A DNA stretch of 64,000 nt. Origin: a bacterium (GTDB taxonomy: Bacteria > RBG-13-61-14 > DATKZS01). Position numbers and translations under genes: made by a program. The notes under the pieces are model-generated. The model was not told the DNA's origin and ran no database searches. It saw only the letters and a program-made list of their open reading frames with translations. The DNA lies in contig CAXXFL010000001.1 in NCBI GenBank assembly GCA_963674965.2, positions 960,001 to 1,024,000 of the forward strand, read 5' to 3'. Shown one piece after another: positions 1 to 64,000 of this stretch (positions are counted from its first letter, which is position 1; each line of letters opens with the position of its first letter).

Positions 1-128
1 TCCCGAACGTTTCGAGCGGCCCGGCCGGGAAAGCCCAAGAATATCAAATTGACGCCATGATACGATCGCCTCGTTCTCGCGCGCAAAGCCTATTCCGATT
101 ATTCCGCCTGATGGATAATGCATCATCA

Positions 129-314
129 GAGCCTCTTGCAAAAGTCCCGCTTTGGAGTGCGGCGGCTCGACGCCGCTTTTCTTCCGAGCGGCTTGACGCG
201 AGGCTAGCCGTTTTCTTTTTAGGCCTTGTCAAGCCAAGGCCATCGAAAGCGGTCTCAAGCGAGAGCACTCTAAAGCGGCTATGCCGCCAAGAAAAGGACT
301 TTTACATGAAGCTC
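129..314. mobile_element. MITE/REPIN-like non-coding element, copy 1 (~186 bp)
   Basis: Imperfect 18-bp terminal inverted repeats GAGCCTCTTGCAAAAGTC (129-146) / GACTTTTACATGAAGCTC (297-314), nested internal inverted repeats, and a second diverged copy at 34768-34951. Confidence 0.75.
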
Positions 315-386
315 CGCGGTTAAAATATTTTGTTTTAAACCTATCATGCGCTTGTTTGCAGAGTAGATTACAGAAGGGAGAAGGAT

Positions 387-2501
387 ATGGACAGGAGAGG
401 TTTTATTAGGACCGGCGCGGCGGCGGCGGCCGTCTTGGCCGTTCCCGAGTGGGTGGCCGCTGCCATATCGGGACTCACCGAGTCGGAGATCGAAAGAAAG
501 GTCGTCCAGATAGTCGCGCAAATGACGCTGGATGAAAAGATTAAACAGATGGCCGGCCACGTGCCTTTAACCAACCTGGCCCAAAGAGTGCTTAATCCCA
601 AGTATCCCGACACCTGGAACACCCCGGAAAACGACCGGCTGGGCGTGCCGTCCATTAGAAGCATCGACGGGCCAAGAGGATGCGGGACCGGCAAGTCCAC
701 CGCCTTTCCCGCCGGCATGTGCCGAGGCGCCACCTGGGACGAAAAACTCGAGCAAAGGGTGGGAGAAGCCGCCGGGTACGAGTGCCGGGCCCAGACGGCC
801 AACCTGCTCCTTTCCCCCTGCGTCAACGTCCTGTGGCATCCCTCCTGGGGAAGGGCCCAGGAGACCTACGGCGAGGACCCCCACCACCTCGGCATAATGG
901 GCGCCGCCCACGTGACGGGAGCGCAAAAACACGTGATGGCCTGCCCCAAGCACTTCGCGGCCAACAACATCGAGGAATCGCGCTTCTCCGTGAACGCGGT
1001 AATGGACGAGCGAACGCTTCGCGAGATATATCTTCCTCATTTCAGGAAGTGCGTCGAGGCCGGAGCGGCTTCGGTCATGAGCGCCTATAACGATTTGAAC
1101 GGAGAGCTTTGCGGCCACAATGAGCATCTTTTACGGGACGTCCTAAAGGGCGACTGGGAGTTCGAGGGCTTCGTGGTAAGCGACTGGATCATGGCCGTGG
1201 AGGATGAGGTCGAGGCGGCCCTGGCCGGACTGGACCTCGAGATGCCCAGGGGAACTCATTTCGGAAGGAAACTCAAAAAGGCCGTCCTAAACGGAGAGGT
1301 ACCCGAGCAAGTCATCGACGAGGCGGTCAGCCGTATTCTCCGGATGAAGTTTCGGTTTATCAAGCCCGACTTCACCGAGGGCTACGACATGGGGATGGTG
1401 GGAGGCGAAAAGCACGCGGCCCTTGCCCGGGAGACCGCCGAAAAGGGCATAGTGCTTCTGAAAAACGACAATAAAGCTTTGCCTCTTCTGGGTGACGTAA
1501 AGACCCTGGCCGTCGGCGGCGGCCACGCCGCGAGGGTTGTCATGGGCGACAAGGGCAGCAGCGCCGTGAATCCGCCTTACGCGGTTTCCCCTCTCGAGGG
1601 TATCGAGTCCAAAGCCGGCGGCCGGGTGAAAATAATCAAGGCCGGCTCTTCTCCTTCCTCGGCGGCCTCGGCGGCCGGCAAAGCCGACGCCGCGGTGCTG
1701 TTCGTGGGCCTGGACTGGAAAGACGAGGGTGAGCATTTTCCCATAGTCGAGGTGGGGGGCGACCGGAAAGACCTCGGTCTTTCCAAGAAGGACGTGAAGC
1801 TTATAAAGTCCGTCGCGGCCTCGAGCGAGCGCTGCATAGTGGTGGTATACGGCGGCTCGGCCATTACCATGGAGGATTGGAAGGACGACGTTGACGCCAT
1901 CGTCATGGCCTGGTATCCGGGCATGGAGGGCGGCTCGGCCCTGGCCAACGTTCTCTTCGGGGACGTAAACCCCTCGGGCAAGCTGCCCATCGTGTTTCCC
2001 AAGTCCATGGACCAGCTTTATAAATTCGACAATAAGGCCAAAGAGGTTCATTACGACTATTATCACGGCTATCGGTACTTCGATAAAAATGGTCTCGAGC
2101 CCGCCTGGCCCTTCGGGTTCGGGAAGTCCTATACGACATACGAGTACTCGAACCTCAGGCTCTCCGAGGACGAGATCGGCTCGAGCGGCTCTATCAAGGC
2201 CAAGGTGGACGTGAAGAACGCGGGCGATATGGCCGGCGAGGAGATAGTCGAGCTTTACGTGGGATATCAAGGCTCCGAGGTCCATCGCCCGGTAAAAGAC
2301 CTGAAGGCCTTTGCCCGGGTTCGCCTCGAGCCGGGCCGCAAAGAGACGGTCGCGCTCGAGATACGGGCCCAGGACCTGGCCTATTACAGCGAGGAAGTAA
2401 ACGACTGGGTGGTCGAGGAAATCGAGTACGAAGTCATGGTCGGCCCGTCCTCAAAAGAAGAGGACCTTATTAAGGCCGGCTTTAAAATATTCGGGCCGTG
2501 A
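387..2501 (+). CDS. Glycoside hydrolase family 3 beta-glucosidase, Tat-exported, with C-terminal Fn3-like domain
   Basis: Twin-arginine signal MDRRGFIR; GH3 motifs DGPRG, GRAQETYGEDP, KHFAAN, VVSDW (nucleophile), FGFGKSYT; SD-like GAAGGA upstream. Confidence 0.93.
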   Translation: MDRRGFIRTGAAAAAVLAVPEWVAAAISGLTESEIERKVVQIVAQMTLDEKIKQMAGHVPLTNLAQRVLNPKYPDTWNTPENDRLGVPSIRSIDGPRGCGTGKSTAFPAGMCRGATWDEKLEQRVGEAAGYECRAQTANLLLSPCVNVLWHPSWGRAQETYGEDPHHLGIMGAAHVTGAQKHVMACPKHFAANNIEESRFSVNAVMDERTLREIYLPHFRKCVEAGAASVMSAYNDLNGELCGHNEHLLRDVLKGDWEFEGFVVSDWIMAVEDEVEAALAGLDLEMPRGTHFGRKLKKAVLNGEVPEQVIDEAVSRILRMKFRFIKPDFTEGYDMGMVGGEKHAALARETAEKGIVLLKNDNKALPLLGDVKTLAVGGGHAARVVMGDKGSSAVNPPYAVSPLEGIESKAGGRVKIIKAGSSPSSAASAAGKADAAVLFVGLDWKDEGEHFPIVEVGGDRKDLGLSKKDVKLIKSVAASSERCIVVVYGGSAITMEDWKDDVDAIVMAWYPGMEGGSALANVLFGDVNPSGKLPIVFPKSMDQLYKFDNKAKEVHYDYYHGYRYFDKNGLEPAWPFGFGKSYTTYEYSNLRLSEDEIGSSGSIKAKVDVKNAGDMAGEEIVELYVGYQGSEVHRPVKDLKAFARVRLEPGRKETVALEIRAQDLAYYSEEVNDWVVEEIEYEVMVGPSSKEEDLIKAGFKIFGP

Positions 2502-2598
2502 CGCCGACCTTATTCGGCCGTCGTCTTCACGGCTCGTCCGGATTTAATATCAGAGCAAACGACATAATAAGACGCCCGACGTCCGCGGGGAGAAAAAA

Positions 2599-4389
2599 AT
2601 GAAATACATCTTTAACGAGAAAAAAGCCGCGGCGTTCTTTTTATCCTGTTTCGCCGTCCTTTCCTTTGTGCTGCTTTTCGCGACCTGCGTTCGCGACAAA
2701 GCTCCCGAGGTTACGACCAGGGCCGAGTCGGTCCCACCCACCGAGTACCTCGAGGCTCACTGCGATGAAGTAGTCGGACCGCCCCGCGTCGAGAGGATAT
2801 CCGAGCACGTCTACGCCGCCATCGGCTACGACCTTGCCAACGTGGTGCTCATCCAAACCGACGACGGAAACGTCATCGTCGACGCGGCCATGAGCCCGGC
2901 CCGGGCCCGGCTGATTAAAAAAGCCCTCTACGCCGAGGTCCCCCAGGCCCCGGTCCGGGCCCTAATCTTTACCCACAGTCATATCGACCACGTGGGCGGG
3001 GCTTCCGAGTTCGTCGAGGAGGGAACCCAGATATGGGCCACGGCGCCCTTTACCGAGCACTTCCTCAAACAGTACGGCACTTTCGGCAAGGCCGAGACCA
3101 CGCGGGCCATGAGACAGTTCGGCCATCATATCGATAGTCAGTCCCTGCCCTGCAGCGCCCTCGGGGCCAGGATGGACATTGACGCGGCCCTCGAGGCCGG
3201 CGTCCGTCTTCCGACCAACGTCTTCTCCGGCGAAAAGGACCTCGAAATAGGAGGTCTGCGTATCGAGCTTCACGAGGGACACGGCGAGACCCACGACCAG
3301 TTGTTCGTGTGGATTCCCGAGGACCAGACGGTCATACCCGGCGATAACTTCTATTGGGCTTTCCCCAATTTGTACACGGTCCGGGGCTCGAGCCCGCGTC
3401 CGGTCAACGAATGGATCAAGGCGCTTGACAATATGCGCTCGAAGGACCCCGCCCATTTGATCGGCATGCATACCCGGCCCATCCACGGCAAGGAGGAGAT
3501 AGCCGAGGCGCTTCGCGATTACAGGGACGCCATCCAATGGGTGCGGGACGAGGTTATCAGAGCGGCCAACCGCGGCGAGGACATGAATTACATGCGTCAC
3601 CAGATCAAGCTTCCTCCCCACCTGGCCGATAAGCGATATCTGCACGAGCTTTACGGACAGGTCGACTGGTCGGCCGAGGCGATTTACACCAACAACCTGG
3701 GCTGGTTCGACGGCCGGGCCGACAAGCTGTACCAACTGGACGGCCGGGAAACGGCCCGCCGCGAGGTCGAGCTGATGGGCGGCGCGAGCGAGGTTTACGA
3801 CGTGGGCGCCAAGGCCCTGGCCGATGGAGACGCCAAGTGGGCCATCCATCTGTTTTCCAAGCTTATGGACTCGCGGCTGGCGGGAGAAGCGCTCGAGGAG
3901 AAAATCAAAGCCGATTTAAGCGAGGCCTACGAGCGGTTGGCCTCGGGCATCGACAACACCAATGGCAGGGCATACCTCCTCGAGTCGGCCCTCGAGCTTA
4001 GGCGGGGAAAGCTCGATCCCCAGTCGCCCCAGGCCAATGAGGCCATTATCGGGGCCATTCCCCTCGAGATGATCTTCGATATCATGCCCACCCGCCTGCG
4101 GGCCGAGGATGCCATGGACGTCCATGAAAGCGTCAGGTTTATCTTTCCCGACGAGGGCCGCCAGTTTACCGTGACCGTGCGGCGCGGCGTGGCCGAGGTT
4201 ATCGAGGGCGAGCCTTTGCCGGGAACGCCCGAGCCGGTCGCGGTCGTCACGGCCGACTCGAGAGCTTACCGCGAGGTGGCGCTGGGCAAGGTCAACTCGG
4301 CCTCCGTCTTTTTAAAGGGAGACATGAAGGTGAAGGGAAGCATCCCCAAGCTCCTTAAATTCCTGGACCTGTTCGAGACGGGCGCGTAG
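2599..4389 (+). CDS. Alkyl/aryl sulfatase (SdsA/BDS1 type: MBL fold, dimerisation domain, SCP2-like C-terminus)
   Basis: THSHIDHVGG metallo-beta-lactamase motif, GETHDQ, FPNLYTVRG, ELYGQV, GWFDG; C-terminal SCP2-like domain; hydrophobic N-terminus. Confidence 0.88.
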   Translation: MKYIFNEKKAAAFFLSCFAVLSFVLLFATCVRDKAPEVTTRAESVPPTEYLEAHCDEVVGPPRVERISEHVYAAIGYDLANVVLIQTDDGNVIVDAAMSPARARLIKKALYAEVPQAPVRALIFTHSHIDHVGGASEFVEEGTQIWATAPFTEHFLKQYGTFGKAETTRAMRQFGHHIDSQSLPCSALGARMDIDAALEAGVRLPTNVFSGEKDLEIGGLRIELHEGHGETHDQLFVWIPEDQTVIPGDNFYWAFPNLYTVRGSSPRPVNEWIKALDNMRSKDPAHLIGMHTRPIHGKEEIAEALRDYRDAIQWVRDEVIRAANRGEDMNYMRHQIKLPPHLADKRYLHELYGQVDWSAEAIYTNNLGWFDGRADKLYQLDGRETARREVELMGGASEVYDVGAKALADGDAKWAIHLFSKLMDSRLAGEALEEKIKADLSEAYERLASGIDNTNGRAYLLESALELRRGKLDPQSPQANEAIIGAIPLEMIFDIMPTRLRAEDAMDVHESVRFIFPDEGRQFTVTVRRGVAEVIEGEPLPGTPEPVAVVTADSRAYREVALGKVNSASVFLKGDMKVKGSIPKLLKFLDLFETGA

Positions 4390-4432
4390 GCTCCTTTTGC
4401 GAAAATCATGTTCCGACAAAAGGGAGAAGAAA

Positions 4433-5461: not shown

Positions 5462-5481
5462 GCTTCGTTAGTTCCGACCAC

Positions 5482-7083: not shown

Positions 7084-7211
7084 GTTTTCCTCCACGCCGG
7101 GCCATAGGCCGGATGAAAATAACTTATTCCCCGCCTCCGCCTCTGTCAAACCTTCCCGCCTTCAAGGTATAATGGATGCATGACTAATCGTGAACATGGA
7201 GGGGGCGCCCG

Positions 7212-8426: not shown

Positions 8427-8531
8427 ACGTACATAAAGAAGCGCCGCCGCCCGGGTCCAAAGACTTGCGCCTTCCGGTAAAACCTGTAAAATCAATCATG
8501 AGCAAGGCGCTCGCGAGAGCGTCTTTTGTTT

Positions 8532-8623
8532 GGAGAGGTGGCCGAGTCCGGTTTAAGGCGGCAGACTCGAAATCTGTTGTACCGCTTGCGGTACCGGGGG
8601 TTCGAATCCCTCCCTCTCCGCCA
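8532..8623 (+). tRNA. tRNA-Ser(CGA)
   Basis: GGAGAGG/CCTCTCC acceptor stem, anticodon arm GCAGA-CTCGAAA-TCTGT, long variable arm, GTTCGAATC T-loop, encoded CCA. Confidence 0.96.
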
Positions 8624-8752
8624 GATACCAGCGCCGGCAAAAGACCGGCTTTTCATCACGCGGCCCGCCTTGAATTGAACCGGTCCTCGTGTTTTAATAT
8701 TTTTTAGGGGGCGGTTTAATGCCGCCCTCTTTGATCCACCGCGGATCAGAGC

Positions 8753-12958: not shown

Positions 12959-12959
12959 A

Positions 12960-21709: not shown

Positions 21710-24700
21710 TCAACCGTCCTTGTCGGATTGAAAGGACAATATCGCTTCCATCGCTCGGGAAAGCTCACGTTCCCGATCGTTAATATCGGACCGGGCCTTG
21801 GACGCGATTTTTTCGATGGCGCCGCGAGCGGCAACGCGAAGTTCCTCATCTTCATCTCCCGCTCGGGCCAATAAAAAGCCAAGGCTCTCGAGACCGCAAA
21901 TCTCTCCAGTTGCCCAGATAACCGTTCTCCGTCCGCGGGCGTCGTCCGTTTTCAGAAACCACTTCACCAGGGCGTCGCCGATGGCCTTGGGGCTGAAAAT
22001 TGAAAAGCGCCCGAGGACTTCACTAGCCCGCTCATGATCCGCGGCCGATAATTCGTCGATCAGACGTTCCAGCGCGCCGGCCGCTTCTCGCTCGGGGGCA
22101 CGGGCCGTCTCCAACGCCTCTTGATATTCATCTTGAGATTCCCTTTCCGGAAAGGATGACGAGTATTCGCCCCATAAGTCGATCTCGTCTCCCGAAAAGT
22201 CAACGTCCTCGACGGCCCGCTCAGGATAGGATTCACGATCGTCCGCCGCCGAGTCGGATGGCGCCGAGACCGCCCGGGCCTCTTGAGATTTATCCTCGGC
22301 GGCCGTCTCCTCGAAGTCGGCCCCCGCGTCGCACAATCTTTTCAACTCGCCGCGACCCTTCTCGGTGAGCGCGAGTACCGGGTACTTCGGACTTCCCGAT
22401 TTTTTGAAAAGGCCCTCGATCAGCATGACCTGGACCTTGTCGCGAAGGTTTTCCTGCGAGTCATGGATCGAGCCGTATACCTCGAGGCGGTCGGCTTTAA
22501 GAGGTCCAACCCAACTGGCCCTGGACCCGGCCAGGATGGCCGCTACCCGACCCACCCCGACGGGTGAAGAGACCTGGGCCACGCACTTTAGCGCGGCCAG
22601 CCTTGTGGCGTCGTTGCCGGAGACGCCCGCTTTTCGGCGCTTGGCCGGCTTCGTCTCCTCGGGGGGGGCCGAAAGAGAAGCGGGCTTGATTTTCAAGGCG
22701 GCCTTGTGGCCCTTCGAGGTGAGTCCGACCACGGGACGTCCAGCCTCGCCCCTGTTCTCGAGGTAGCCTTCCCGAAAAAGCGCGCTTATCGTTTTCTTTA
22801 CCTCGTCCTGGTTGGCGGACACTTTGCCGTAGGCCGGGTTCCGGTCGAGCTTCCATTTGATGAGGTTCTTGTCGCGAGAGCCGGTCACCACCTGGGCTAT
22901 CTTTCCCCTGCCAAGAGGGAAACGAAGGCGGCTCACGCAAAGCAGGATGGGCGCGGCTACGTGGGGCGACTCGGCCAGGATTCCCGACGCGGATTCCGGC
23001 TCATCCTCTTCCCGGCAGCGGTCGCATGATCCGCAAGTCCCCGCGCTTTTCTCGCCGAAGTAATTCAGGATGTACTCGTGTCGGCAAGACGGATGCGCGA
23101 TTAGCTTTTCCATGGCCTCGAGCTTCTCGTACTCGGCCTTTCTCAGTTTCTCGTGTTTGTCCCAGTCGATAGGGGCCTTTTTGAATGGGGGCGGCGTGTC
23201 GATGAGCTTCTCGATCCCCCTTCCCCGAAAGGGCGGCTCGTATTCGATGACGCCCGCGTTATCGAGAGACGCCAGCGCCCTCTTGACCTGTTCCTCGTCA
23301 AGACCGGCTGACAGGCAAAGCCGGGTGAGACTGATCTCGTGTCTTCCCGGCTCCTCGAGGTCCGCCACGCTCGAGATGGCCTCGAGCACCCTCCGCTGAA
23401 CGGGTCCCTTTACCGAGGAGATGGTCCTCGAGCCGGGGCGGTCGAAGGTTACGGCCACCCGCTGCTCGCCCGAGAAGGCCCGAGTCAGGCCGGCGTTATC
23501 CAGCAATCTCACGGCGGCCCCCACTTGCATGTCTTTCACGTTGCCGTCGCATAAGGCCGCGATGCCCCGGTAGGTCATCATGATAGGGTTGGCCTTGATC
23601 TTCCAAAGGGCCCGGTAGACGTCCTCGACCTGCTCGGGCTTGGGATAGCTCATGTCGATGAAAAACTCCCGGAGGCGGCGGTCGGAGGGAGAGTAAAGGA
23701 GCACGCACTTTGAAATAAGCCCGTCCCGGCCGGCCCTGCCAATTTCCTGGTAATACTGCTCGACCGATCCGGGGTAGGAGTAGTGGACCACGAAGCGGAC
23801 GTCGGGCTTGTCGATGCCCATGCCAAAGGCCGAGGTCGCCGCCACCACCCGGTCCTTGCCGCTGATGAAGCGGTCCTGGGCCCGCTCGCGCTGGTCCGGC
23901 TCCATGCCCGCGTGGTACACGCCCACTCGTTGGCCCGCGGCGGACAAAGAGTCGGCCGCTTCCTCCGCCGCCCTCCTCGTTCCCGCGTAAATGATGCCCG
24001 AGCCGGGGTTTTCCCGTAAGAATTCCTCGAGGAAGATTATTTTTTCGGTCTCCGTATAGGCCGGCTCGACTTCTATCTCGAGGTTGGGCCGCGAGAACCC
24101 GTGGACGTGAACGTCAACCTCGCCGGCCGTGAGCCCAAGGGACTCGATCACGTCCTTTCTAACTCGAGGCGTGGCCGTGGCGGTAAGGGCCGTAACTTTC
24201 GGGTTTCCCAGCCGGCGTCGAAACTCTCGAAGGCGAAGGTAGTCGGGCCGGAAGTCGTGGCCCCATTCCGAGATGCAATGGGCCTCGTCCACGGCCATCC
24301 TCTCGACTTTCACCCTCGAGACCATGCCGGCGAAGGTCGCGTTCCGAAAGCGCTCTGGCGCCACGTAAAGCAGCTTGTACTTGCCATCGGCGCAGGCGGC
24401 CATGCGGCCCCTTTGTTCGTCCAGGCCAAGACTCGAGTTGATGAAGGTGGCGGATACGCCCTTTCTCGCGAGTTCGTCCACCTGGTCCTTCATGAGCGCG
24501 ATAAGGGGGGACACCACCAGGGTAAGTCCTTTTCCCATCAAGGCGGGAAGCTGGTACAAGAGGGATTTGCCGCTGCCAGTGGGCATGACCACCAGCAGGT
24601 TGCCGCCGGATAAAACCGACCTTAAAGACTCCTCCTGGCCGGCGAGAAATTCCCGGTGCCCGAAGCGCTCGGATAAAAGCCTGGCCGCCTCTTCCATATT

Positions 24701-24736
24701 AGGGGCGAGGCGGTCGTTCGTTCCCGATCGGTCCAT
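21710..24736 (-). CDS. RecQ-family ATP-dependent DNA helicase with extended C-terminus
   Basis: MPTGSGKS, VDEAHCISEWGHDFRPDY, TATAT, AFGMGIDK, QEIGRAGRDG, zinc motif CRH...CGSCDRC, two RQC-like segments, HEAT-like tail. Confidence 0.93.
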   Translation of the reverse strand: MDRSGTNDRLAPNMEEAARLLSERFGHREFLAGQEESLRSVLSGGNLLVVMPTGSGKSLLYQLPALMGKGLTLVVSPLIALMKDQVDELARKGVSATFINSSLGLDEQRGRMAACADGKYKLLYVAPERFRNATFAGMVSRVKVERMAVDEAHCISEWGHDFRPDYLRLREFRRRLGNPKVTALTATATPRVRKDVIESLGLTAGEVDVHVHGFSRPNLEIEVEPAYTETEKIIFLEEFLRENPGSGIIYAGTRRAAEEAADSLSAAGQRVGVYHAGMEPDQRERAQDRFISGKDRVVAATSAFGMGIDKPDVRFVVHYSYPGSVEQYYQEIGRAGRDGLISKCVLLYSPSDRRLREFFIDMSYPKPEQVEDVYRALWKIKANPIMMTYRGIAALCDGNVKDMQVGAAVRLLDNAGLTRAFSGEQRVAVTFDRPGSRTISSVKGPVQRRVLEAISSVADLEEPGRHEISLTRLCLSAGLDEEQVKRALASLDNAGVIEYEPPFRGRGIEKLIDTPPPFKKAPIDWDKHEKLRKAEYEKLEAMEKLIAHPSCRHEYILNYFGEKSAGTCGSCDRCREEDEPESASGILAESPHVAAPILLCVSRLRFPLGRGKIAQVVTGSRDKNLIKWKLDRNPAYGKVSANQDEVKKTISALFREGYLENRGEAGRPVVGLTSKGHKAALKIKPASLSAPPEETKPAKRRKAGVSGNDATRLAALKCVAQVSSPVGVGRVAAILAGSRASWVGPLKADRLEVYGSIHDSQENLRDKVQVMLIEGLFKKSGSPKYPVLALTEKGRGELKRLCDAGADFEETAAEDKSQEARAVSAPSDSAADDRESYPERAVEDVDFSGDEIDLWGEYSSSFPERESQDEYQEALETARAPEREAAGALERLIDELSAADHERASEVLGRFSIFSPKAIGDALVKWFLKTDDARGRRTVIWATGEICGLESLGFLLARAGDEDEELRVAARGAIEKIASKARSDINDRERELSRAMEAILSFQSDKDG

Positions 24737-31965: not shown

Positions 31966-34677
31966 CTACTTTTTAAGCTCCGCCTTCATCTCGTGCAAAA
32001 GGGTAAGGGCCTCGAGGGGCGTCAGGGCGTCGAGGTCCATGTCCCTGATCTGGCCGGCCACCTTTTCCGCAACCGGGTCGGCCGGCGGCTCGGAGGGCGG
32101 GAAAAAGGAAAGCTGGACCGGTCCGTCCTTTTTCCGTGGCTCGCCCGCCTTCTTGCTGATGGCCGGTTTGCCCGCGGGGTCGTGCTCGACCGACTCGAGG
32201 TTCTCGAGTATTTCCTTGGCCCGCTCGATTACCTCGGCGGGAAGTCCCGCCAGCCGGGCGACCTGGATGCCGTAGGAGCGGCTGGTCGAGCCGGGGACCA
32301 TGCGGCGGAGGAAGATGACCTCCCCCTCCCACTCCTTGACCAGGACGTGGTAGTTCTTGACCCGGTCCCGGGTCTCGGCCAGGTCAACCAACTCGTGGTA
32401 ATGGGTGGCGAACATGGTTTTGGCCCGGCGGCCCGGCGCGTCGTGCAGAAACTCGGCCACGGCCCAGGCGATGGACAGCCCGTCAAAGGTGGAGGTGCCC
32501 CGCCCGATCTCGTCGAGCAGTACCAGGCTCTTGTCCGTGGCGTTGTGGAGTATATTGGCGGCCTCGGTCATCTCGACCATGAAGGTGCTCATGCCCCGCA
32601 CCAGCACGTCGGAGGCGCCCACGCGGGTGAATATCCGGTCGACCACTCCTATCCGGGCCTCGCGGGCGGGCACGAAGGAACCCATTTGGGCCATGATGGT
32701 TATTAAGCCGGTCTGTCTCAGGATGGTGGACTTGCCGGCCATGTTGGGTCCGGTGATGATGAGTATCTGGTACTCTTGTCCGTCCAGCAAAACGTCGTTG
32801 GGCACGAAGCGCTCGGTCTTGACCAGCTCGGGTATGACCGGGTGCCATCCGCCCTTGATATCTATTTCGCCCGATTCATCCACCTCGGGCCGGGTAAGCC
32901 TTTTGGCGGCGGCCATCTCGGCCAGGCCGGCGATGGCGTCGAGCTCACCCAGCCGGCGGGCGTTTTCCTGAAGCTGGACCGCTCGGGAGGCGACCTTTTC
33001 CCTAAGCTCGACGAACAGCTCGTAGTGAAGCTCGATGAGCCGGTCCTCCGCTCCGAGGACCTTGGCCTCGAGTTCCTTGAGCTCGGGCGTGATGAAGCGC
33101 TCGGCGTTGACCAGGGTCTGCTTCCGAATGTAATCCGAGGGAGCCGAGGCCGCCTGGGCCTTACTGATCTCGATGTAATAGCCGAAGACCTTGTTGTACT
33201 TGACCTTCAATTTAGGTATGCCCGAGCGCTGTCTTTCCGCCGCCTCGAGGCCGGCGATGACCGACTTGGCGTCCCGTTGGACGCTCGTCAGCTCGTCGAT
33301 CTCGGCCGAGTAGCCGGGCCGGATCAGCCCGCCGTCGCGAAGGGAAGAGGGCGGCTCGTCAACCAGCGCCATCGAGAGCAGCCCGACTACTTCCTCGAGG
33401 GGGTCCAGGCCCTCGAGGACTTCCTGGATTTTAGAGGACTCCGCTTTGCCGGCGAGGGCCTTGATGGCGGGAATAAGCTCGAGCGTCTCCCTCGCGGCGC
33501 GAAGGTCCCGGGCGTGGGCGCTGCCGGTGGCGATGCGGGCGGAAATCCTTTCCAGGTCCGAAAGCCTTTGGAAAAGACTCCTAAGATCGAGCCGATAGGC
33601 GTGGTCCTGGGCCATCCACTCCACCGCGTCGAGGCGGGCGTTGATCCGGTCCACGTCCATGAGGGGGGAATGGAGCCACTGGCGGAGGACCCTGCCGCCC
33701 ATGCTGGTGACGGTCCGGTCGAGGAACCAGAAGAGGGAACCCGCGGGTTTCGAGTCTCTGAGTGTCCTTGTCAGCTCGAGGTTTCGCTTGGTGCTTTCGT
33801 CTAAAACCATGTAGTCGGAGGAGGAATAATAGGACAGGCCGGTCACGTGCGACAAGGGGTTGGGTATGGTGATGGGCTCGTCTCCGCCCACGGCGAAGGG
33901 AGGGACGTCCTCCGGCTCCTGCGTCTCCCGGAGATAATAAAGCAGGGCCCCAGCCGCCCGGACGGCCTGGGGAAATCCCTCGACCCCGAACCCCTCGAGG
34001 GTGTCGGCCCGGAAATGCTCGAGCAGGGTCCGGCGCGCCTTGTCCGGATCGTAGGCCTCTTCCTCCGGGTGGTCCATGAAGACGGGAGGCTCGGTGGAGA
34101 GGGACACCTCACGTACGGCCTCCCCCACGCCGGGAATGTCCAGAAGGCTTTTGGGAACGAGTATCTCGGCGGGCTCGAGCCGGAACAGCTCGTCGGCCAG
34201 CTCCTCGGCGCGGCGAAGGGTCGTGGCCTTGAATTCCCCCGTCGAGAAATCCAGGAAGGCCAGGCCGCTTTCCTCTCCGTCCGAGGCGACCGAGACCACG
34301 TAGCGGGAGGACTTGGCCGGGAGCCTTTCCGGGCTGACGGCCGTGCCGGGCGTGATCACGCGGGTAACGGCCCGCTTCACGATGCCCTTGGCCTTTCTCG
34401 GGTCTTCCACCTGCTCGCACACGGCGACCTTATAGCCGGCCTCGACCAGCCTGGCCAGGTAGACGTCGGCCGAGTGGTAAGGGACCCCCGCCAGCGGCAC
34501 GGACTCGGGCATGCCCTTGTCCCGAGCGGTAAGGGTGATGCCGAGCGCCCTCGAGGCCTTCTCGGCGTCCTCGAAGAACATCTCGTAAAAGTCGCCCATC
34601 CGAAAGAAAAGGATGCAGTCGGGATACCTCTCTTTAAAGGAAAGGTACTGCTGAATCATGGGAGTAAGCTTCGTCAT
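31966..34677 (-). CDS. mutS: DNA mismatch repair protein MutS
   Basis: TPMIQQY, FRMGDFYEMF, TGPNMAGKST, STFMVEM, DEIGRGTSTFDG, SYGIQVA. Confidence 0.98.
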   Translation of the reverse strand: MTKLTPMIQQYLSFKERYPDCILFFRMGDFYEMFFEDAEKASRALGITLTARDKGMPESVPLAGVPYHSADVYLARLVEAGYKVAVCEQVEDPRKAKGIVKRAVTRVITPGTAVSPERLPAKSSRYVVSVASDGEESGLAFLDFSTGEFKATTLRRAEELADELFRLEPAEILVPKSLLDIPGVGEAVREVSLSTEPPVFMDHPEEEAYDPDKARRTLLEHFRADTLEGFGVEGFPQAVRAAGALLYYLRETQEPEDVPPFAVGGDEPITIPNPLSHVTGLSYYSSSDYMVLDESTKRNLELTRTLRDSKPAGSLFWFLDRTVTSMGGRVLRQWLHSPLMDVDRINARLDAVEWMAQDHAYRLDLRSLFQRLSDLERISARIATGSAHARDLRAARETLELIPAIKALAGKAESSKIQEVLEGLDPLEEVVGLLSMALVDEPPSSLRDGGLIRPGYSAEIDELTSVQRDAKSVIAGLEAAERQRSGIPKLKVKYNKVFGYYIEISKAQAASAPSDYIRKQTLVNAERFITPELKELEAKVLGAEDRLIELHYELFVELREKVASRAVQLQENARRLGELDAIAGLAEMAAAKRLTRPEVDESGEIDIKGGWHPVIPELVKTERFVPNDVLLDGQEYQILIITGPNMAGKSTILRQTGLITIMAQMGSFVPAREARIGVVDRIFTRVGASDVLVRGMSTFMVEMTEAANILHNATDKSLVLLDEIGRGTSTFDGLSIAWAVAEFLHDAPGRRAKTMFATHYHELVDLAETRDRVKNYHVLVKEWEGEVIFLRRMVPGSTSRSYGIQVARLAGLPAEVIERAKEILENLESVEHDPAGKPAISKKAGEPRKKDGPVQLSFFPPSEPPADPVAEKVAGQIRDMDLDALTPLEALTLLHEMKAELKK

Positions 34678-57371: not shown

Positions 57372-57376
57372 TCGGC

Positions 57377-58333: not shown

Positions 58334-58358
58334 ATATATTCCTGAAAGGAGCGCGGCC

Positions 58359-60035
58359 CTAGGCAGGGTTCGAGAACCACTCGGGGACCGCGTCCTGCAC
58401 CGCCAGCACGATGTCCATGTCGTGCTCGCCCATGGCGCCGCGCGCGATAAGCGACTCGACCGTCTTCATCAGCACCACCATCTTGGCCTCCGTGTGAATG
58501 ATGGCCGGATAATACTCGTTGACGAAAAACTGCTTGAGCCGGAACCGGCCGCGCTCGTCCTGGGCCATTTCCTTTATCTTGGCTTCGGTTTCCTTTTTGG
58601 AGAGGCCCTGGAGGTCTCTCTTGGGGGAGGCCATGCGGGAGGAAACGTCGCCTACTCCTTTTTTGCATTTAAAGGTCAATTGCCAGTGCTCGGTGACGCC
58701 CAGAGAATTTATGGCCAGGGTATTGGTGGTGATAATACCCTTCTCTCGGTCGACCTTGACCCCCTCGAGCTGCGGCAGGTAGACGTTGTCGGAGATGGCC
58801 GAGAAAGCGCTCAACCCCCCGGCAAATGGACGCTCGAGAATGTCCTCGATGGTGAAGAAGGGCTTCTGCTCGAAACGGGCGTCCTGGATGAGCATGAGCT
58901 CGTCCTCCGTGTAATGGAAGCGCTCGGCCCAAAGCTCCTCCGCGCTGAGGTCCTTGCGCGTAAGAGAGCTCTGGCTCGTCAGCATGCCCAGGGCCTTGCC
59001 GCCGCGCCAAACCAGGGGCAACACGCCGATGGCCCACTCGGCGGACCCGCCTATCTCGCCGATGAGACTGTTCAAGGGACGGCCGTCGGGGAACTTGAGC
59101 CCCTCCACGCCGAGAAGGAGGGAGGGAAAGAGGTCCCCGTCCTTGTCGTAAGGAGTGGCCACTCCCATCTCGTTGAGCTGGGCCATGGGAGGCTCGTGAC
59201 GCTTTCTGTCAATGAAGAAGGCCGTCAATTCCTTGAAGTCCTTCATACCGTAGGCCCCGGCGATGATCTCGACTTCCTCTTTAAGGTCGGTGGCGCGGGG
59301 GTTGAAGTCGGGAAAGGGGGCCCCCGCCATCCAGCGCTCGACGTAAATGTCCGGCAAGTGGCGCTTGACGCCCGACTCGGTCACGAACAGGGTAGTAAGA
59401 GAGCTGTGCAGCCCTTTAACCGACTTGGTCGTGCCCTCGACCACGTCCGAGCCCATGCTGAGCATGTTGATCTCCTTGCTCAGGCCGCGGCCGTAGGTGC
59501 GGCAATGCTCCTCTTTGCCGTACAGCGCGCCCACCGGGATGGTGGGATTGCCGCCGGGCTCGACGCCGGGCTTGACCCTCACCCCCTCCGTGATGGCGCT
59601 CTCGATGATGACCTCCTCCCCCACGTCGAAGGTCTCGGTCGATATCTGAAGGACCTCGGCCATCACCTGGGCCGATATGCGGTCGTTCATGCGCTTTAGA
59701 GAGTTGATCTTCTCCTTGGTCTGGAGTTCCTCCGGCACCTTGTTAAGAGAGCCGAAGCCGTGAAGCACCACGGCGGCCGCGGGCAGGGCCGCCGCCAGAA
59801 TAACCGACTGGCGGAGCTGCTTGCTCCTGAAGGCCCCAAGGTTGGATTTGCCGTTTACCCGATCGTCGATGATGAAGACCGTCCCGGACTCCAGCTCGAG
59901 ACCGTAAAATTCCATGACCTCCTTATGACGCAGATTGAAAGTGGAAACCTTGCCCTTCCCCATTACCACCGGGTCGTGACGACCCGAGTAAGAGGGCCGC
60001 TGGTCGGCAACGTTGTACCTGAGTGGACTGCTCAT
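58359..60035 (-). CDS. glpX: Class II fructose-1,6-bisphosphatase (GlpX-like) with N- and C-terminal extensions
   Basis: TEG, DVVEGT, PDIY, DRKRH, DGDL and IGGSAE align in order with GlpX motifs GEG, DPxEGT, PDxY, RxRH, DGDV and GGxPE. Confidence 0.7.
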   Translation of the reverse strand: MSSPLRYNVADQRPSYSGRHDPVVMGKGKVSTFNLRHKEVMEFYGLELESGTVFIIDDRVNGKSNLGAFRSKQLRQSVILAAALPAAAVVLHGFGSLNKVPEELQTKEKINSLKRMNDRISAQVMAEVLQISTETFDVGEEVIIESAITEGVRVKPGVEPGGNPTIPVGALYGKEEHCRTYGRGLSKEINMLSMGSDVVEGTTKSVKGLHSSLTTLFVTESGVKRHLPDIYVERWMAGAPFPDFNPRATDLKEEVEIIAGAYGMKDFKELTAFFIDRKRHEPPMAQLNEMGVATPYDKDGDLFPSLLLGVEGLKFPDGRPLNSLIGEIGGSAEWAIGVLPLVWRGGKALGMLTSQSSLTRKDLSAEELWAERFHYTEDELMLIQDARFEQKPFFTIEDILERPFAGGLSAFSAISDNVYLPQLEGVKVDREKGIITTNTLAINSLGVTEHWQLTFKCKKGVGDVSSRMASPKRDLQGLSKKETEAKIKEMAQDERGRFRLKQFFVNEYYPAIIHTEAKMVVLMKTVESLIARGAMGEHDMDIVLAVQDAVPEWFSNPA

Positions 60036-60135
60036 CTTAACTCCTCCCCTATGAGTTTTTTGACCGATACTACTCCACGGTAAACATCATATCCTAACGG
60101 AGGCTTCCCGCAAACATTAAACAAAGGCCCGTCCT

Positions 60136-62424
60136 TCATCTCGGAAGCTCACGGAGCGACCGGGTGATGAAATCGTCGAGCACGTTTCTCGACCCCGACC
60201 GGATTCCGATAAGGGAATAGGTAATGTCCGCCCGCTCGTCGGCCACCAGCCAGGGAATGACCCGGGCCCGGGTCTGAAGCTCGATGATCTCCGTCCTTTT
60301 AGCGGCGCTGACCTCGGGAAGCGGGTTTTCAAGGACCTCGAGGCATAAAAGTCCCGCGCGACCGTAATAGGAAAGCTTTTGAGAGGCCGGTCTCAGTTCA
60401 TCGACCAGCCGCGGGTCGTCCACCTTGGACTCCAGTTCCTCGGGGTTTTTCGCGTAAAGATCGAGCAGGACCGCCAGTTTTTTCCTGGCCTCCTTGCCGT
60501 TCCCCCGGCGGCGTTCCTCCCAGTACGCCTGGACGGCCTGGTACACGGGAGTCTGCTCGACGCTCAGGGACTCGATGGCCGGATGGGAAATAAGACAATC
60601 CGAGATGGCCTTGAGAGGCGCGTAGCCGGTCTCTCCACCTAAAATTTTAAGCCCCTCCTCATAGGACGCCCACGGGTCGTAGGAAGCCGAGGTCATATAC
60701 TCTCCGGCCGTGTAAAGCGAGATTTTACTGGCGTTGGGAAGATACATGGGATTTAGAAAGATTCCCGAGACGTCCTTTTCCAGGTCCTCGGACCCGCCCA
60801 AATAGGGCCCGGTGAAAATATTGAAGCGAAGAACGCCGTCGTTCGCCGGGTAATTGTCCCAGATCATTATTTGCCGCCCCAGGGTCTCTTTAAGGTCACG
60901 AATCGCTTCCCTGTCGGCCTTGCTCGAGAACACCTCGCCCGGACCGGTCCACATGACCGTAACCTCGGGATGGACCGACTTGATGGCCTCGAGGTAGGCC
61001 GCCCTGGAGGAGTCCCTGGTGAGGAACATGCTGAATGAGCGAGAAAAAACCGTGGGAACGAAAATAAACCTTACCTTTTCCTCCTTGATCGAGAACCAGC
61101 GCAAAACGTCGTTGACAAGGCGGGCCTGCCCCTCAGCCAGGTTTTGAATGCCGGTCCCGGCCGCGGGAACGTCGTCGAACAAAAGAGCGAAGTTCCTTAC
61201 GCCCACGCCGTAGAGAGTATCGAGCTTTTGCTCGACGGCCGCGGCCTCGGCCGGGTCGCGGGGGTTCAGGTCAATGCCCGGCGACAGGCCGTAGATAAAG
61301 GTTATTTGGCGGGCCTTGCAGGCGTTCAATAGTTCCTTGAAGTTTTCAAGTTCCTTTTCCGGGTAGGGCCTTCTCCACCATTGGCGGAGGTAAGGGTCCA
61401 TTTTCGGGGCGTAAAGATAACGGTTGAAGCCCGCGTCCTCCATAAAGGAGATCATCCTCAGCCTCTCCTGATGAGGCCAGGGATCGTTATAGAACCCCTC
61501 GATTACTCCCCTTGCCTCGAAGCGGGCCTCGGCCTCGCCGGGAAGCGTGCTCGTCATGGCCGGGACCGGCTCCGACCGAGCCCCACCAAAGCTCTCGGCC
61601 ACCAGGAGGTAATGATATTCCTGGCCGGGCTCGAGGCCCCGGTCCAAGATGGAAAAGCGGTCTACCTCCGCCACCAGAAACTCGGGAGATATCCTGGGAG
61701 GCCCTCCCTCGTTTCGGTATAATAGGTACAGGTAAGGGGCTTCCCCTTCAGGGGCGGACCATTTCAGGGATATGGCCCCATCGCCGGCCGGAGCGGCCTC
61801 GAGGCCCTCCGGCGCCGCGGGAGCCTCTGACCCGGAATCGCCCAGGACCGCCAGGTCCACGATGGAAATGGAGGCGGGCTTATCGAGGGCGGCCTCGACG
61901 CGGATGGAGTTGACGGCCAAGGGCGGGTTGAAATCGATAGTCTCGGGTTTGCCCGTGACCGCGTCCGATGAATGCAGGGGTCTCCAGTAGTCTCCGTCGC
62001 AGGTGACCATGATTTTATAGGAGGATGGAAAGTCCTTGCCCCAGTCGATTTCCATGCCCGAGAGGTTTATCCTTTCCCTCATCCGGTTTCCGAGCTCGAG
62101 CCTGATCCAGTGCAGGTCCGATTCCTCGGAAGCCCAAAAGGTCAGCGGGCTTCCATCGATGGCGTAACGCTCATCCATTCTAGGCCGGGTTTGGGGTATG
62201 GTCTGGAAGACTCCTTCCGTGATGGAGGATCCCCTTGCCATTTCGTTCATCCTGGCCAGACGCCTGCTGGAGGCGAGGACCCTGGCCCATCGGGCCCTGT
62301 TCGGACTTTTCGCCGAGGAGTCCCCGGGGCTTTCATTCTGGCCGTGGGCCGTTGAAAAACAAATGATGGCCAAGGCCGCCGTAGCCGCGGCGGCTTTCAA
62401 TGAGCTTAAAGCTTTTTTATTCAT
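60136..62424 (-). CDS. GH84 beta-N-acetylglucosaminidase with F5/8 type C (CBM32-like) and Fn3 domains, secreted
   Basis: GVIEGFYNDPW, YAPKMDPY, LSPG, LFDD catalytic pair, WTG, WDNYPAND, NPM; AIDG...W discoidin motif; signal peptide. Confidence 0.9.
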   Translation of the reverse strand: MNKKALSSLKAAAATAALAIICFSTAHGQNESPGDSSAKSPNRARWARVLASSRRLARMNEMARGSSITEGVFQTIPQTRPRMDERYAIDGSPLTFWASEESDLHWIRLELGNRMRERINLSGMEIDWGKDFPSSYKIMVTCDGDYWRPLHSSDAVTGKPETIDFNPPLAVNSIRVEAALDKPASISIVDLAVLGDSGSEAPAAPEGLEAAPAGDGAISLKWSAPEGEAPYLYLLYRNEGGPPRISPEFLVAEVDRFSILDRGLEPGQEYHYLLVAESFGGARSEPVPAMTSTLPGEAEARFEARGVIEGFYNDPWPHQERLRMISFMEDAGFNRYLYAPKMDPYLRQWWRRPYPEKELENFKELLNACKARQITFIYGLSPGIDLNPRDPAEAAAVEQKLDTLYGVGVRNFALLFDDVPAAGTGIQNLAEGQARLVNDVLRWFSIKEEKVRFIFVPTVFSRSFSMFLTRDSSRAAYLEAIKSVHPEVTVMWTGPGEVFSSKADREAIRDLKETLGRQIMIWDNYPANDGVLRFNIFTGPYLGGSEDLEKDVSGIFLNPMYLPNASKISLYTAGEYMTSASYDPWASYEEGLKILGGETGYAPLKAISDCLISHPAIESLSVEQTPVYQAVQAYWEERRRGNGKEARKKLAVLLDLYAKNPEELESKVDDPRLVDELRPASQKLSYYGRAGLLCLEVLENPLPEVSAAKRTEIIELQTRARVIPWLVADERADITYSLIGIRSGSRNVLDDFITRSLRELPR

Positions 62425-62487
62425 TCTTTTCCAGATCCTTTTCTCGCTCGCCGCAAACGATCTTGTTGCTTGCGTGCCCCATTGGTC

Positions 62488-62516
62488 ATGATAAAAAAAC
62501 TGGCCGCCGTCGTCAA
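62488..62516 (-). promoter_or_regulatory. Sigma70 promoter of the GH84 gene
   Basis: Minus strand TTGACG (62516-62511), 17 nt, TATCAT (62493-62488). Confidence 0.7.
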
Positions 62517-62517
62517 C

Positions 62518-62577
62518 GGCGGGTTAACGTGGGGCGGGTTAACGTGGGGCGGGTTAACGTGGGGCGGGTTAACGTGG
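62518..62577. repeat. Perfect tandem repeat, 4 x GGCGGGTTAACGTGG (15 bp)
   Basis: Four exact copies starting at 62518, 62533, 62548 and 62563. Confidence 0.97.
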
Positions 62578-62580
62578 AGA

Positions 62581-63564
62581 TTACTTTCGTGAAGGATGGT
62601 CTTCCATGGCCTCGCGGAGGTCTGAAAGAAGGTTTTCGAAGCGCTCGTAGAAGAAGTAGGTTTCCTGGGAGAAGTTCATGAGCACGCGGTTCAATTTATC
62701 CGGTATGTAGGGGTAGAGCTTTTTCAAATTTGCTATCCTGTACTTGTAAAAGAGGAGCGCGTCGTCGGCCGTAAGGCTGCACGCCTCGTTGCACTTGGGG
62801 AAACGCTCAGGATACTTAACGACCTCGGAAAAGCTGATGATCTTTTTAGCCGTGACGTAAGTGATGACGTTCCCGCAGCTCCAGATGTCGTAATCCTCGT
62901 AGGAGACCTGGAAATCGAAGTCTATCCACCTGTACTTGCCCGTGTCCTTGTCAATTATTATATGGTCGTTTCTCACGTCGCCGTGATGTTCGCCATGGTC
63001 CTCCAGGAACTTGAGGGCCTCGACGCACTCGATGACCTCGTCCATTACCCCGGGGAAAACCTCGTGAAAGTATTCCTCGTGATCCATGTCCAGCATGGCC
63101 AGTTGGTTGAAAAGGGTCTTGCCGGGGAGAAAATCGATGACTCTCACCAGGTTGCCCGCCGCGTCCAAAACCGTGAAGCCCTGCATGAAGCGATCGTGTC
63201 CTTTCACGACCTCGAGGCAATGGGCCTCCTTTTCCGGGCTCCGGTGACACTTGATAAGAAAGATGCCCTCCCGCGAGGTGAAGTCCTCATAGAAGACCAT
63301 CTTGATGATCTTGCGGGACCCGTCGTCAAGGTCATAGCCGTACTTGACCCAGAACTTGGGCTGGTCGTCGATACCGAAGCGTCCCTCCTTGGCGTCGCCC
63401 GTGAGGAAATAGTCCTTACCCGCGATCCTGAGGACCATGCCGCCGGAAATGCGCATGTAGTCGGTGGTGTCCTCGATGATTTGGGGACGACCGTACACGG
63501 TCCGTCCCGTCAGTTCTTTGACCCTGTCCTTTAACTCCCGCTCGTCGTTAATAATCACCGGCAA
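62581..63564 (-). CDS. Protein kinase-like protein (atypical Ser/Thr kinase fold)
   Basis: EGRFG, KIIK, EKEA, HGDVRNDH, WIDFD and DIWSCG appear in kinase subdomain order. Confidence 0.75.
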   Translation of the reverse strand: MPVIINDERELKDRVKELTGRTVYGRPQIIEDTTDYMRISGGMVLRIAGKDYFLTGDAKEGRFGIDDQPKFWVKYGYDLDDGSRKIIKMVFYEDFTSREGIFLIKCHRSPEKEAHCLEVVKGHDRFMQGFTVLDAAGNLVRVIDFLPGKTLFNQLAMLDMDHEEYFHEVFPGVMDEVIECVEALKFLEDHGEHHGDVRNDHIIIDKDTGKYRWIDFDFQVSYEDYDIWSCGNVITYVTAKKIISFSEVVKYPERFPKCNEACSLTADDALLFYKYRIANLKKLYPYIPDKLNRVLMNFSQETYFFYERFENLLSDLREAMEDHPSRK

Positions 63565-63588
63565 TCATCCCTGGCCAGCCGCCGCTAT

Positions 63589-64000
63589 TTATAAGCCGTA
63601 AAACTCGAGAATCTTGTCAGCCACTTCCTTGACCATGTCGGAGGTCATCTCCGGGTAGACGGGAATGGCCAGACACTCGAGGCAGGCCCGCTCCGAGGCC
63701 GGGAAGGAATCGGCCTCATTTAGGTATGGCTTGAAACAGCCGAGCCGATGGAGGGGGACCGGATAATATACCGCGGACCCGATTCCCTTTCCGGCCAGAT
63801 ATTTCATGAGCTCATCTCTTTTCTCGACCCTGACAACGTAGTTGTTGAACACGTGATCGCCGCCCACCCGGGCGAGGGGCTTAACGCTCGTGCCCTGGAA
63901 GGCCCGGTCGTAATAGTCGGCGCGCTCTCTTCTCTTGCTCGCCCATTCCGAAAGCAGGGGAAGCTTGGCCAGGAGCACGGCCGCCTGGATCGAGTCCAGC
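63589..64000 (-). CDS. DegT/DnrJ/EryC1/StrS-family sugar aminotransferase, 3' part only (truncated by the window edge)
   Basis: LDSIQAAVLLAKL, HVFNNYVVR, GIGSAVYYPVPLH, LAIPVYPEM. Confidence 0.9.
   Translation of the reverse strand, partial: LDSIQAAVLLAKLPLLSEWASKRRERADYYDRAFQGTSVKPLARVGGDHVFNNYVVRVEKRDELMKYLAGKGIGSAVYYPVPLHRLGCFKPYLNEADSFPASERACLECLAIPVYPEMTSDMVKEVADKILEFYGL

Follow-up and report, generated by a model that had tools for sequence, protein, structure and literature searches.

The abundance of the palindrome CTCGAG in a bacterial genome probably reflects a TCGA-centred sequence-context bias rather than a HIP-like methylation-linked system

The closest described counterparts of a short palindrome that accumulates throughout a bacterial genome are the highly iterated palindromes (HIPs) of cyanobacteria, above all HIP1 (GCGATCGC). 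According to the available part of the study by Xu, Lawrence and Durand (2018, PMC5861425) on HIP1 site conservation and periodicity, HIP1-rich genomes carry 0.2-2.7 sites per kb and, when a second-order Markov model supplies the expectation, have observed/expected ratios (O/E) above 16, the enrichment ranging from 16- to 317-fold. In the available part of Elhai (2015, PMC4390886), the alternate palindrome GGCGCC has an O/E of 15.5 in Calothrix D253 and a somewhat higher value in PCC 7103, and alternate HIPs are accompanied by a cognate methyltransferase. Two further bodies of work, likewise available in part, concern restriction targets and CTCGAG itself. About half of the orthodox Type II restriction-modification systems show no avoidance of their sites, for many of which recent acquisition is given as the reason (Rusinov et al. 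2015, PMC4687349), and in Nocardia CTCGAG has an orphan methyltransferase and is clustered in the dnaA-dnaN interval (Blow et al. 2016, PMC4752239). The stretch analyzed here is a 64,000-nucleotide bacterial DNA segment (assembly GCA_963674965.2, contig CAXXFL010000001.1, positions 960,001 to 1,024,000), referred to as the window and located at C1:960001-1024000 of the source genome G000. A preliminary description of it, made from the sequence alone, had claimed that CTCGAG behaves like a highly iterated palindrome that overrides codon choice, and had proposed a HIP-like system outside cyanobacteria.

In the whole assembly (6.50 Mb in 7 contigs, GC 0.57-0.60), CTCGAG occurs 10,762 times (1.66 per kb) and is the most frequent of all hexamers. 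For the coding fraction, a gene set was built from ATG-started open reading frames (ORFs) of at least 120 codons, which were passed through a codon log-likelihood filter trained on 656 long ORFs and resolved greedily for overlaps, resulting in 4,191 genes covering 5.22 Mb or 80.5 % of the genome. These genes contain 9,986 CTCGAG sites compared to 3,534 ± 57 expected from 20 within-gene synonymous-codon shuffles, a 2.8-fold excess; the expectation from codon-order shuffling is 3,065. Separated by reading frame, 7,843, 181 and 1,962 sites stand against 2,828, 52 and 654 in the 20 synonymous shuffles; with expectations of about 2,800, 53 and 650 this corresponds to 2.8-, 3.4- and 3.0-fold. Ranked by the lowest observed/shuffled ratio over the three frames, CTCGAG is first of 2,892 hexamers, and no other palindrome of six letters shows an excess that is both strong and consistent. 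The Leu-Glu dipeptide itself is scarcely enriched (1.08), and 62 % of all Leu-Glu pairs (7,843 of 12,682) are written CTC-GAG instead of the expected 21 %. The excess therefore outlives protein-preserving codon shuffling, and since it is present in all three frames, a force at the DNA level does override codon choice, as had been proposed. A longer motif was considered and rejected, because CCTCGAGG, with 1,775 occurrences against 624 expected, shows the same enrichment of about 2.8-fold as the hexamer and thus gives no indication of an extension.

Despite this excess, CTCGAG is not a unit at the hexamer level. Its whole-genome, both-strand O/E falls from 5.27 at Markov order 0 (O/E0) through 4.20, 3.14 and 1.22 to 0.94 at order 4, and the Karlin-type ratio, which is conditioned on all gapped sub-words, is 0.97, compared to 0.27-0.30 for CAGCTG, GGATCC and AGATCT. 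The fourth-order Markov model that had been suggested as a check thus finds no excess. Since sub-words inherit a true hexamer signal, so that high-order models can mask one, the neighbouring words were examined as well. In the table of all NTCGAN words the two flanks are independent, with 22,940 both-strand counts predicted for CTCGAG and 21,524 observed. Relative to the synonymous shuffles, the ratios are graded: 1.37 for TCGA, on the coding strand 2.00 for TCGAG and 1.88 for CTCGA, followed by 1.78 for ATCGAG, 1.79 for GTCGAG, 1.50 for TTCGAG and 2.03 for CTCGAT, and finally 2.82 for CTCGAG. A single perfect half-site therefore has an effect of about 1.7-fold, and two half-sites have approximately its square. 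What is favoured is the five-letter word TCGAG, together with its complement CTCGA, and the two overlap in the palindrome. An excess fully explained by a general TCGA bias had been named beforehand as an outcome that would speak against a HIP-like system; TCGA alone is insufficient, but the four- and five-letter sub-words of CTCGAG do explain the excess. The multiplicative half-site pattern may also be compatible with a dimeric protein reader.

The explanation favoured here, with a probability of roughly 60 %, is a lineage-specific, TCGA-centred, neighbour-dependent substitution bias, which we infer to be the cause of the CTCGAG excess. The half-words CTCGA and TCGAG would each be favoured independently and coincide in the palindrome, and this preference would itself be built on a preference for TCGA, CTCG and CGAG. 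It would act on DNA rather than on translation, be present throughout the GC-rich native fraction of the genome and set synonymous codons by their neighbours, with Leu-Glu becoming CTC-GAG and Ser-Ser becoming TCG-AGC after a C-ending codon. The bias would consist of mutation plus repair at freely variable, GC-favoured positions, and its outcome would be a genome signature of the TCGA-rich kind known in many GC-rich bacteria, in an extreme form. This explanation is supported because the frames are equal, the flanks independent, the neighbours graded and highly expressed genes not more affected than others. It is further supported because the excess is pervasive and weaker in atypical DNA, because the shift relative to same-family genomes is centred on TCGA, and because a similar bias occurs without the restriction-modification operon described below, the operon occurs without the excess, and its endonuclease gene is compositionally foreign.

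Genome signatures consist of Karlin-type oligonucleotide relative abundances and context-dependent codon bias. The CTCGAG excess shares their features: it is a strand-symmetric, pervasive, genome-wide short-word bias that is explained by lower-order words, weaker in foreign DNA and of a TCGA-rich kind common to many GC-rich bacteria. It differs in being unusually strong for 58 % GC, where CTCGAG is the first-ranked hexamer. The genome can serve as a worked example of how its commonest hexamer, a palindrome that dictates codon choice, need not be a functional unit. Protein-preserving shuffles alone would suggest a HIP, and it is the controls with sub-words, neighbours and other genomes that show otherwise.

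In the window, a direct count gives 156 CTCGAG sites in 64,000 bases (2.4 per kb, GC 0.601), where base composition alone predicts about 21. The sites and the four genes considered individually, each assigned with Pfam, are as follows.

1..64000, no strand: CTCGAG, 156 sites, 3 to 16 per 4 kb throughout the window (from positions and histogram)
387..2501, plus strand: GH3 glycoside hydrolase gene, 8 sites, 6 of them in frame as CTC-GAG and 2 in frame 2; Leu-Glu written CTC-GAG in 6 of 6 pairs
2599..4389, plus strand: alkyl sulfatase gene, 8 sites, 6 in frame 0 and 2 in frame 2; Leu-Glu written CTC-GAG in 6 of 7 pairs
21710..24736, minus strand: RecQ-type helicase gene (recQ), 13 sites in three frames (8, 1 and 4); Leu-Glu written CTC-GAG in 8 of 10 pairs
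31966..34677, minus strand: mutS, 13 sites, 12 in frame 0 and 1 in frame 2; Leu-Glu written CTC-GAG in 12 of 13 pairs

The hand counts of the preliminary description were exact, both for the sites (35 at positions up to 12,000 and 13 within mutS) and for the Leu-Glu pairs of the GH3, sulfatase and mutS genes. The out-of-frame sites it had pointed out are genuine, as the 2 sites in frame 2 of the GH3 gene and the 4 in that of recQ demonstrate. Its statement that Leu-Glu is almost always written CTC-GAG holds for the window, where this spelling accounts for 77 of 99 pairs over the 16 genes with Pfam support while Leu overall freely uses CTG, CTC and CTT, but is weaker genome-wide, at the 62 % given above.

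Compared to HIP1 and the alternate HIPs, CTCGAG is similar in several respects. It is a palindrome with about 1-2 sites per kb, occurs in every reading frame, overrides codon choice, is lineage-specific among relatives and is accompanied by a presumably cognate methyltransferase gene. Its density of 1.66 per kb lies above the lower limit of 0.2 per kb and inside the range of 0.2-2.7 per kb given for HIPs in the available part of PMC5861425. However, the enrichment is far smaller: the second-order O/E of 3.14, obtained from whole-genome both-strand counts where Xu et al. used a per-frame version, compares with values above 16, i.e. 3.1-fold versus 16- to 317-fold. Furthermore, CTCGAG does not stand far above its sub-words or one-letter variants, as the order-4 and Karlin-type ratios indicate, and it shows no excess in AT-rich non-coding DNA. 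Finally, the methyltransferase is one half of a mobile restriction-modification module that is complete, and other hosts of this module show no such excess. For these reasons, and since the operon and CTCGAG richness dissociate across genomes, the interpretation as a HIP-like system is not supported.

The lineage specificity is apparent from four same-family genomes, which were sampled at 57-100 kb each for word statistics and have a GC content of 0.57-0.61, similar to G000. They contain 0.35-0.64 CTCGAG per kb with an O/E0 of 0.9-2.7, and their CTCGAG/GAGCTC ratio is 0.5-0.9 compared to 7.6 in G000. For TCGA, the O/E0 is 1.25-1.33 in these genomes and 2.36 in G000. TCGA is also the 4-mer most raised in G000 over the same-family genomes (1.86-fold), and CA/TG-rich words are lowered. 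Among 300 other genomes, with densities based on rounded genome sizes, G171 alone is denser in CTCGAG, and six reach at least 1.5 per kb. Samples of 38-80 kb from each of the five richest have a GC content of 0.67-0.73, a TCGA O/E0 of 3.3-4.1 and a CTCGAG order-2 O/E of 1.35-2.37, with the hexamer ranking from 9th to 131st. A metagenome scan with MutS found relatives with 36-48 % identity over most of the length and short partial matches of up to 55 %. Among the 80 loci found, the 36 of at least 12 kb have an order-2 O/E of at most 2.54, and the 48 of at least 8 kb have a median O/E0 of 2.5 and a maximum of 6.1. Over-representation of TCGA and CTCGAG is therefore common among GC-rich bacteria; G000 is the strongest sampled case after correction for short words and unusual at 58 % GC, but of the same order of magnitude.

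The same comparison yielded observations on other words. CCGCGG, with about 1.3-1.55 sites per kb, is the first-ranked hexamer in G001 and G002 and the second in G004, and it is among the words most lowered in G000 relative to the same-family genomes. In G006, a genome of the same order, TCGA is nearly absent (O/E0 0.03 in a 100-kb sample), and in 2.6 Mb there are only 23 CTCGAG sites in G006 and 45 in G008, also of this order. This suggests a TaqI-type restriction system in the genus of G006 and G008.

Outside the window, between secA and menA, G000 carries an XhoI/PaeR7I-type restriction-modification operon (C6:34917-36517). The endonuclease gene (C6:34917-35633) encodes 238 amino acids (AA) of the PaeR7I/XhoI family (PF04555, 299 bits), and its relatives carry the source name 'PaeR7I family type II restriction endonuclease'. 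The protein keeps 79 of 79 invariant columns in a 26-sequence alignment, including D86, E100 and K102; a sequence search found no solved structure for it. The methyltransferase gene (C6:35630-36517), which overlaps the endonuclease gene by 4 bases, encodes a 295 AA beta-class amino-methyltransferase (PF01555), for which the best match of solved structure is TTHA0409 from Thermus thermophilus (2ZIE, E-value 9e-116). Its translation contains an SPPY motif, which is typical of N4-cytosine methyltransferases, and it is presumably specific for CTCGAG. An orphan CTCGAG methyltransferase and a Vsr-like gene had both been proposed as things to look for. The former was found only in the sense of this presumed enzyme, which is not an orphan but overlaps an endonuclease gene. 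A Vsr-type mismatch endonuclease gene is present as well and is solitary (C3:292793-293296, 167 AA, between response-regulator and epimerase genes); a distance of 43 kb separates it from the genome's single gene for a C5 cytosine methyltransferase (C3:248882-249976).

The composition of the operon is uneven. The GC content at third codon positions (GC3) of the endonuclease gene is 0.54, below that of all 4,191 called genes, and the gene contains no CTCGAG, while the methyltransferase gene has a GC3 of 0.74 (25th percentile) and two sites. Dating the operon by GC3 was rejected, because in other hosts both genes have GC3 medians of 0.58 with wide ranges, which makes the low value of the endonuclease gene suggestive only. 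The surroundings of secA are not conserved in G001-G004 and G007, where its neighbours include no homologue of menA, the kinase or the SDR protein, and synteny therefore gives no indication for or against an insertion. Most likely, the operon arrived by horizontal transfer and is incompletely ameliorated, and its 10,762 presumed chromosomal targets are tolerated through methylation. Among related genomes, two loci hold decayed modules of the XhoI type.

G002, C41:13372-16812 (L016): XhoI-type remnant in a same-family genome, with methyltransferase fragments upstream of an endonuclease gene without its first 74 residues
G010, C255:487-3588 (L017): XhoI-type remnant in a same-order genome, an N-terminal endonuclease fragment with a stop codon

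One alternative is a methylation-linked process of the kind proposed for cyanobacterial HIP1, in which the methyltransferase, with or without the endonuclease, Vsr or MutS/MutL, would mark CTCGAG, and sites would be created or preserved either by a repair bias that depends on the methyl group or because the methylated base is protected from deamination. Apart from the intact gene pair and the HIP-like density, several findings agree with it. The excess acts at the DNA level in all frames, a multiplicative half-site effect is expected of a dimeric reader with additive binding energy, the alternate HIPs in the available part of Elhai (PMC4390886) have cognate methyltransferases, and the same-family genomes without an intact operon are also without the excess. 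However, beside the low second-order enrichment and the lack of a signal at the hexamer level, the operon and CTCGAG richness are uncoupled in both directions. In other genomes, 77 of 80 loci have the endonuclease gene followed by an adjacent methyltransferase gene in the same orientation, so the module is kept as a unit, and around 64 of these homologous endonucleases (loci of at least 8 kb; the other 16 of the 80 found were shorter and were dropped) the CTCGAG O/E0 has a median of 0.59, lies below 0.3 in 19 loci and exceeds 4 in none. Conversely, none of the five other CTCGAG-richest genomes contains PF04555 or a close methyltransferase homologue, with queries that do match in G000. Because of this dissociation, the operon is probably not the cause of the excess, and we infer that it is unrelated to it. 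The excess also seems older than the operon, since the endonuclease gene has the lowest GC3 of the genome while the excess is saturated across native genes. In addition, AT-rich spacers lack the excess, Vsr is remote from the only C5-methyltransferase gene, and the methyltransferase of the operon is not of the C5 type. A methylation link is thus unlikely, and the process as outlined is an improbable cause. Even less probable is a full HIP-like system outside cyanobacteria, in which marking by the methyltransferase would maintain the abundance of CTCGAG in native DNA and, less strongly, that of sites with a single perfect half. If it did exist, methylation would direct the strand choice of MutS/MutL or shield the methylated base from deamination, and the XhoI-type module would have been drawn into a housekeeping role, which would explain why it is intact here and a remnant in same-family and same-order relatives. 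It would also extend methylation-linked palindrome accumulation beyond cyanobacteria, with a defined enzyme pair.

With regard to restriction, CTCGAG is not avoided in G000, as its Karlin-type ratio of 0.97 is not below 0.78 and it counts as normally represented. Like the Type II systems with non-avoided sites in the available part of Rusinov et al. (PMC4687349), the operon combines an orthodox endonuclease and a separate methyltransferase with a 6-bp palindrome that the host does not avoid; unlike them, its presumed site is the commonest hexamer of the host by raw count. The recent acquisition given there as a reason for unavoided sites fits the foreign composition of the endonuclease gene. 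A host with more than 10,000 presumed targets of an intact resident enzyme represents an extreme of this class and a natural test case for the cost of such a restriction-target load. The comparison with Nocardia, for which the available part of PMC4752239 describes CTCGAG methylation of the chromosome and proposes a housekeeping role, differs in that the methyltransferase here is not an orphan and methylation is presumed. An origin-proximal cluster is also absent: a 5.7-kb stretch that covers dnaA and the spacers on either side of it contains no CTCGAG, and each of the 15 densest clusters is located within genes.

The observed/shuffled ratio of CTCGAG is 2.4-3.0 across the 7 contigs and 2.7-2.9 for each GC3 class above 0.69, but only 1.79 for those 5 % of genes whose GC3 is lowest. 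In the region C7:44-85 kb, which comprises rpoB/C, two tuf genes, fusA and the ribosomal-protein operons, 60 sites were found against 24.3 expected, and this ratio of 2.47 is not higher than the genome-wide 2.83, which is evidence against translational selection. It bears on the possibility that CTC-GAG is selected as a codon pair during translation. Among codon pairs, CTC-GAG ranks second in strength (O/E 2.98), frame 0 holds 79 % of the coding sites, and junction effects specific to the coding strand are strong in G000. Nevertheless, the equal fold excess in frames 1 and 2, the lack of a stronger effect in the highly expressed region and the excess in short non-coding convergent gaps disfavour codon-pair selection as the cause, and we regard it as highly improbable.

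As an additional observation on this region, the two tuf (EF-Tu) genes, with 401 codons each (C7:65032-66237 and C7:81840-83045), are identical in their first 28 residues and have the same GC3 and number of CTCGAG sites. One is located after fusA, the other ahead of the secE-nusG-rplK region.

Several findings weigh against the substitution bias as favoured here. The main fact that it does not predict is the behaviour of AT-rich spacers, which should carry the excess because a purely mutational bias acts there too, and where this signature is invisible. In gaps with a GC content below 0.52 (224 kb), 45 sites compare with 44.7 expected, i.e. no excess, and CTCGAG ranks 336th of 960 hexamers of the same composition. 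The 161 kb without any 90-codon open frame have an O/E of 1.0-1.5 with 33 sites. In GC-rich gaps, where unannotated genes are possible, CTCGAG ranks first with an O/E of 3.5. With increasing local GC, the O/E0 climbs from about 1.9 to 7.5, which is likewise not predicted by a simple context bias. All coding/intergenic comparisons are limited by the home-made, ORF-derived gene set, which makes the intergenic classes imperfect. Moreover, the order-2 O/E of 3.14 in G000 exceeds that of all 41 comparison samples. Lastly, traces of the operon occur in 3 of 21 related genomes, two of them the remnants listed above, and it would be an improbable coincidence for an intact operon of the cognate type to reside in exactly this genome.

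The lack of an excess in these spacers and the steady rise with GC would fit a process tied to transcribed or GC-rich DNA instead of a genome-wide mutational context bias. Candidates are transcription-associated repair or mutagenesis, GC-biased conversion and selection on the RNA word CUCGAG. In coding DNA all frames show the excess. Among gap types, the O/E0 is 3.0 for convergent gaps, which lie at transcribed 3' ends, 2.5 for co-directional ones and 1.8 for divergent ones, which contain promoters, and the 207 short convergent gaps without a 50-codon open frame hold 12 sites against 3.7 expected. While the strict intergenic set of 161 kb suggested that the excess is confined to coding DNA, these convergent gaps soften this view. 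However, GC (0.556, 0.529 and 0.495 in the same order) and unannotated coding sequence both act as confounders of the gap type, a 2.4- to 2.8-fold rise in the strict convergent gaps is also seen for other GC-rich palindromes, and the excess is no greater in highly expressed genes. To our knowledge, no RNA-level role exists for a word such as CUCGAG. A process of this kind is therefore considered rather doubtful.

Other words stand out in the strict intergenic set, where the top hexamers are CTTGAC/GTCAAG (4.9-fold over order-1 expectation) and TTGACA/TGTCAA (4.3-fold). They resemble a promoter element of the -35 type with an additional C.

Along the genome, CTCGAG is over-dispersed, with a variance of 20.5 and a mean of 8.3 per 5 kb. 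The idea that mobile islands avoid CTCGAG was dropped, since there were too little data and the site-free stretches had been chosen by that very feature. In an unbiased 10-kb scan, 9 of 646 windows contain at most one site, and 6 of these fall into one region of about 100 kb (C6:280000-382600) with low GC (0.46-0.55) and nearly no CTCGAG, including a 26-kb gap between sites. TCGA is not depleted there. The region also contains two Eco57I-family (type IIG-like) genes (C6:351206-355135 and C6:379718-380263) and is probably a foreign island.

Apart from words in excess, G000 avoids many others. The observed/shuffled ratios are 0.05 for AGATCT, 0.09 for GGATCC, 0.07 for AGATCC and 0.11 for GGATCT, which together follow the pattern RGATCY, as well as 0.10 for CAGCTG, 0.25 for CTAG, 0.37 for both GTCGAC and CTGCAG, 0.40 for GTGCAC, 0.25 for CGTACG and 0.48 for GAGCTC. 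The strongly avoided palindromes are low in all three frames and in intergenic DNA, which is visible in the window counts too. GGATCC, CAGCTG, CTAG and GAGCTC are avoided alike in coding and non-coding DNA, unlike the CTCGAG excess. CAGCTG and CTAG avoidance is common to the four same-family genomes and RGATCY avoidance to three of them. At codon junctions on the coding strand, T followed by G reaches 0.47 of expectation, T followed by T 1.87 and A followed by A 1.48.

This raises the possibility that the CTCGAG excess is a by-product of avoidance, in which the rejection of CTAG, the T-to-G junction, GAGCTC, CTTGAG, CTGGAG and others pushes synonymous choice to CTC-GAG and TCG-AGx. Many palindromes are indeed avoided 3- to 20-fold, and besides the T-to-G junction, CTT-GAG (0.18) and CTG-GAG (0.54) are reduced. 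Arg after xCT codons is rarely AGR (3.6 % versus about 33 %), which avoids CTAG and roughly doubles the usage of CGA, and this effect explains part of the frame-1 excess without a role for the final G. However, frame 1 has only 181 of the 9,986 sites, and the avoided neighbours are strand-asymmetric (CTTGAG 0.29 versus 1.52 for its complement CTCAAG), while the CTCGAG excess is symmetric and frame-independent. The 1.86-fold rise of TCGA over the same-family genomes is also left unexplained, although CTAG and CAGCTG avoidance is common to them. An origin by avoidance is hence not very plausible, about as improbable as the methylation-linked process. Beyond these context effects, the codon usage itself is odd for 58 % GC, with ATA accounting for 23 % of Ile, AGG for 28 % of Arg and GCA for 2 % of Ala.

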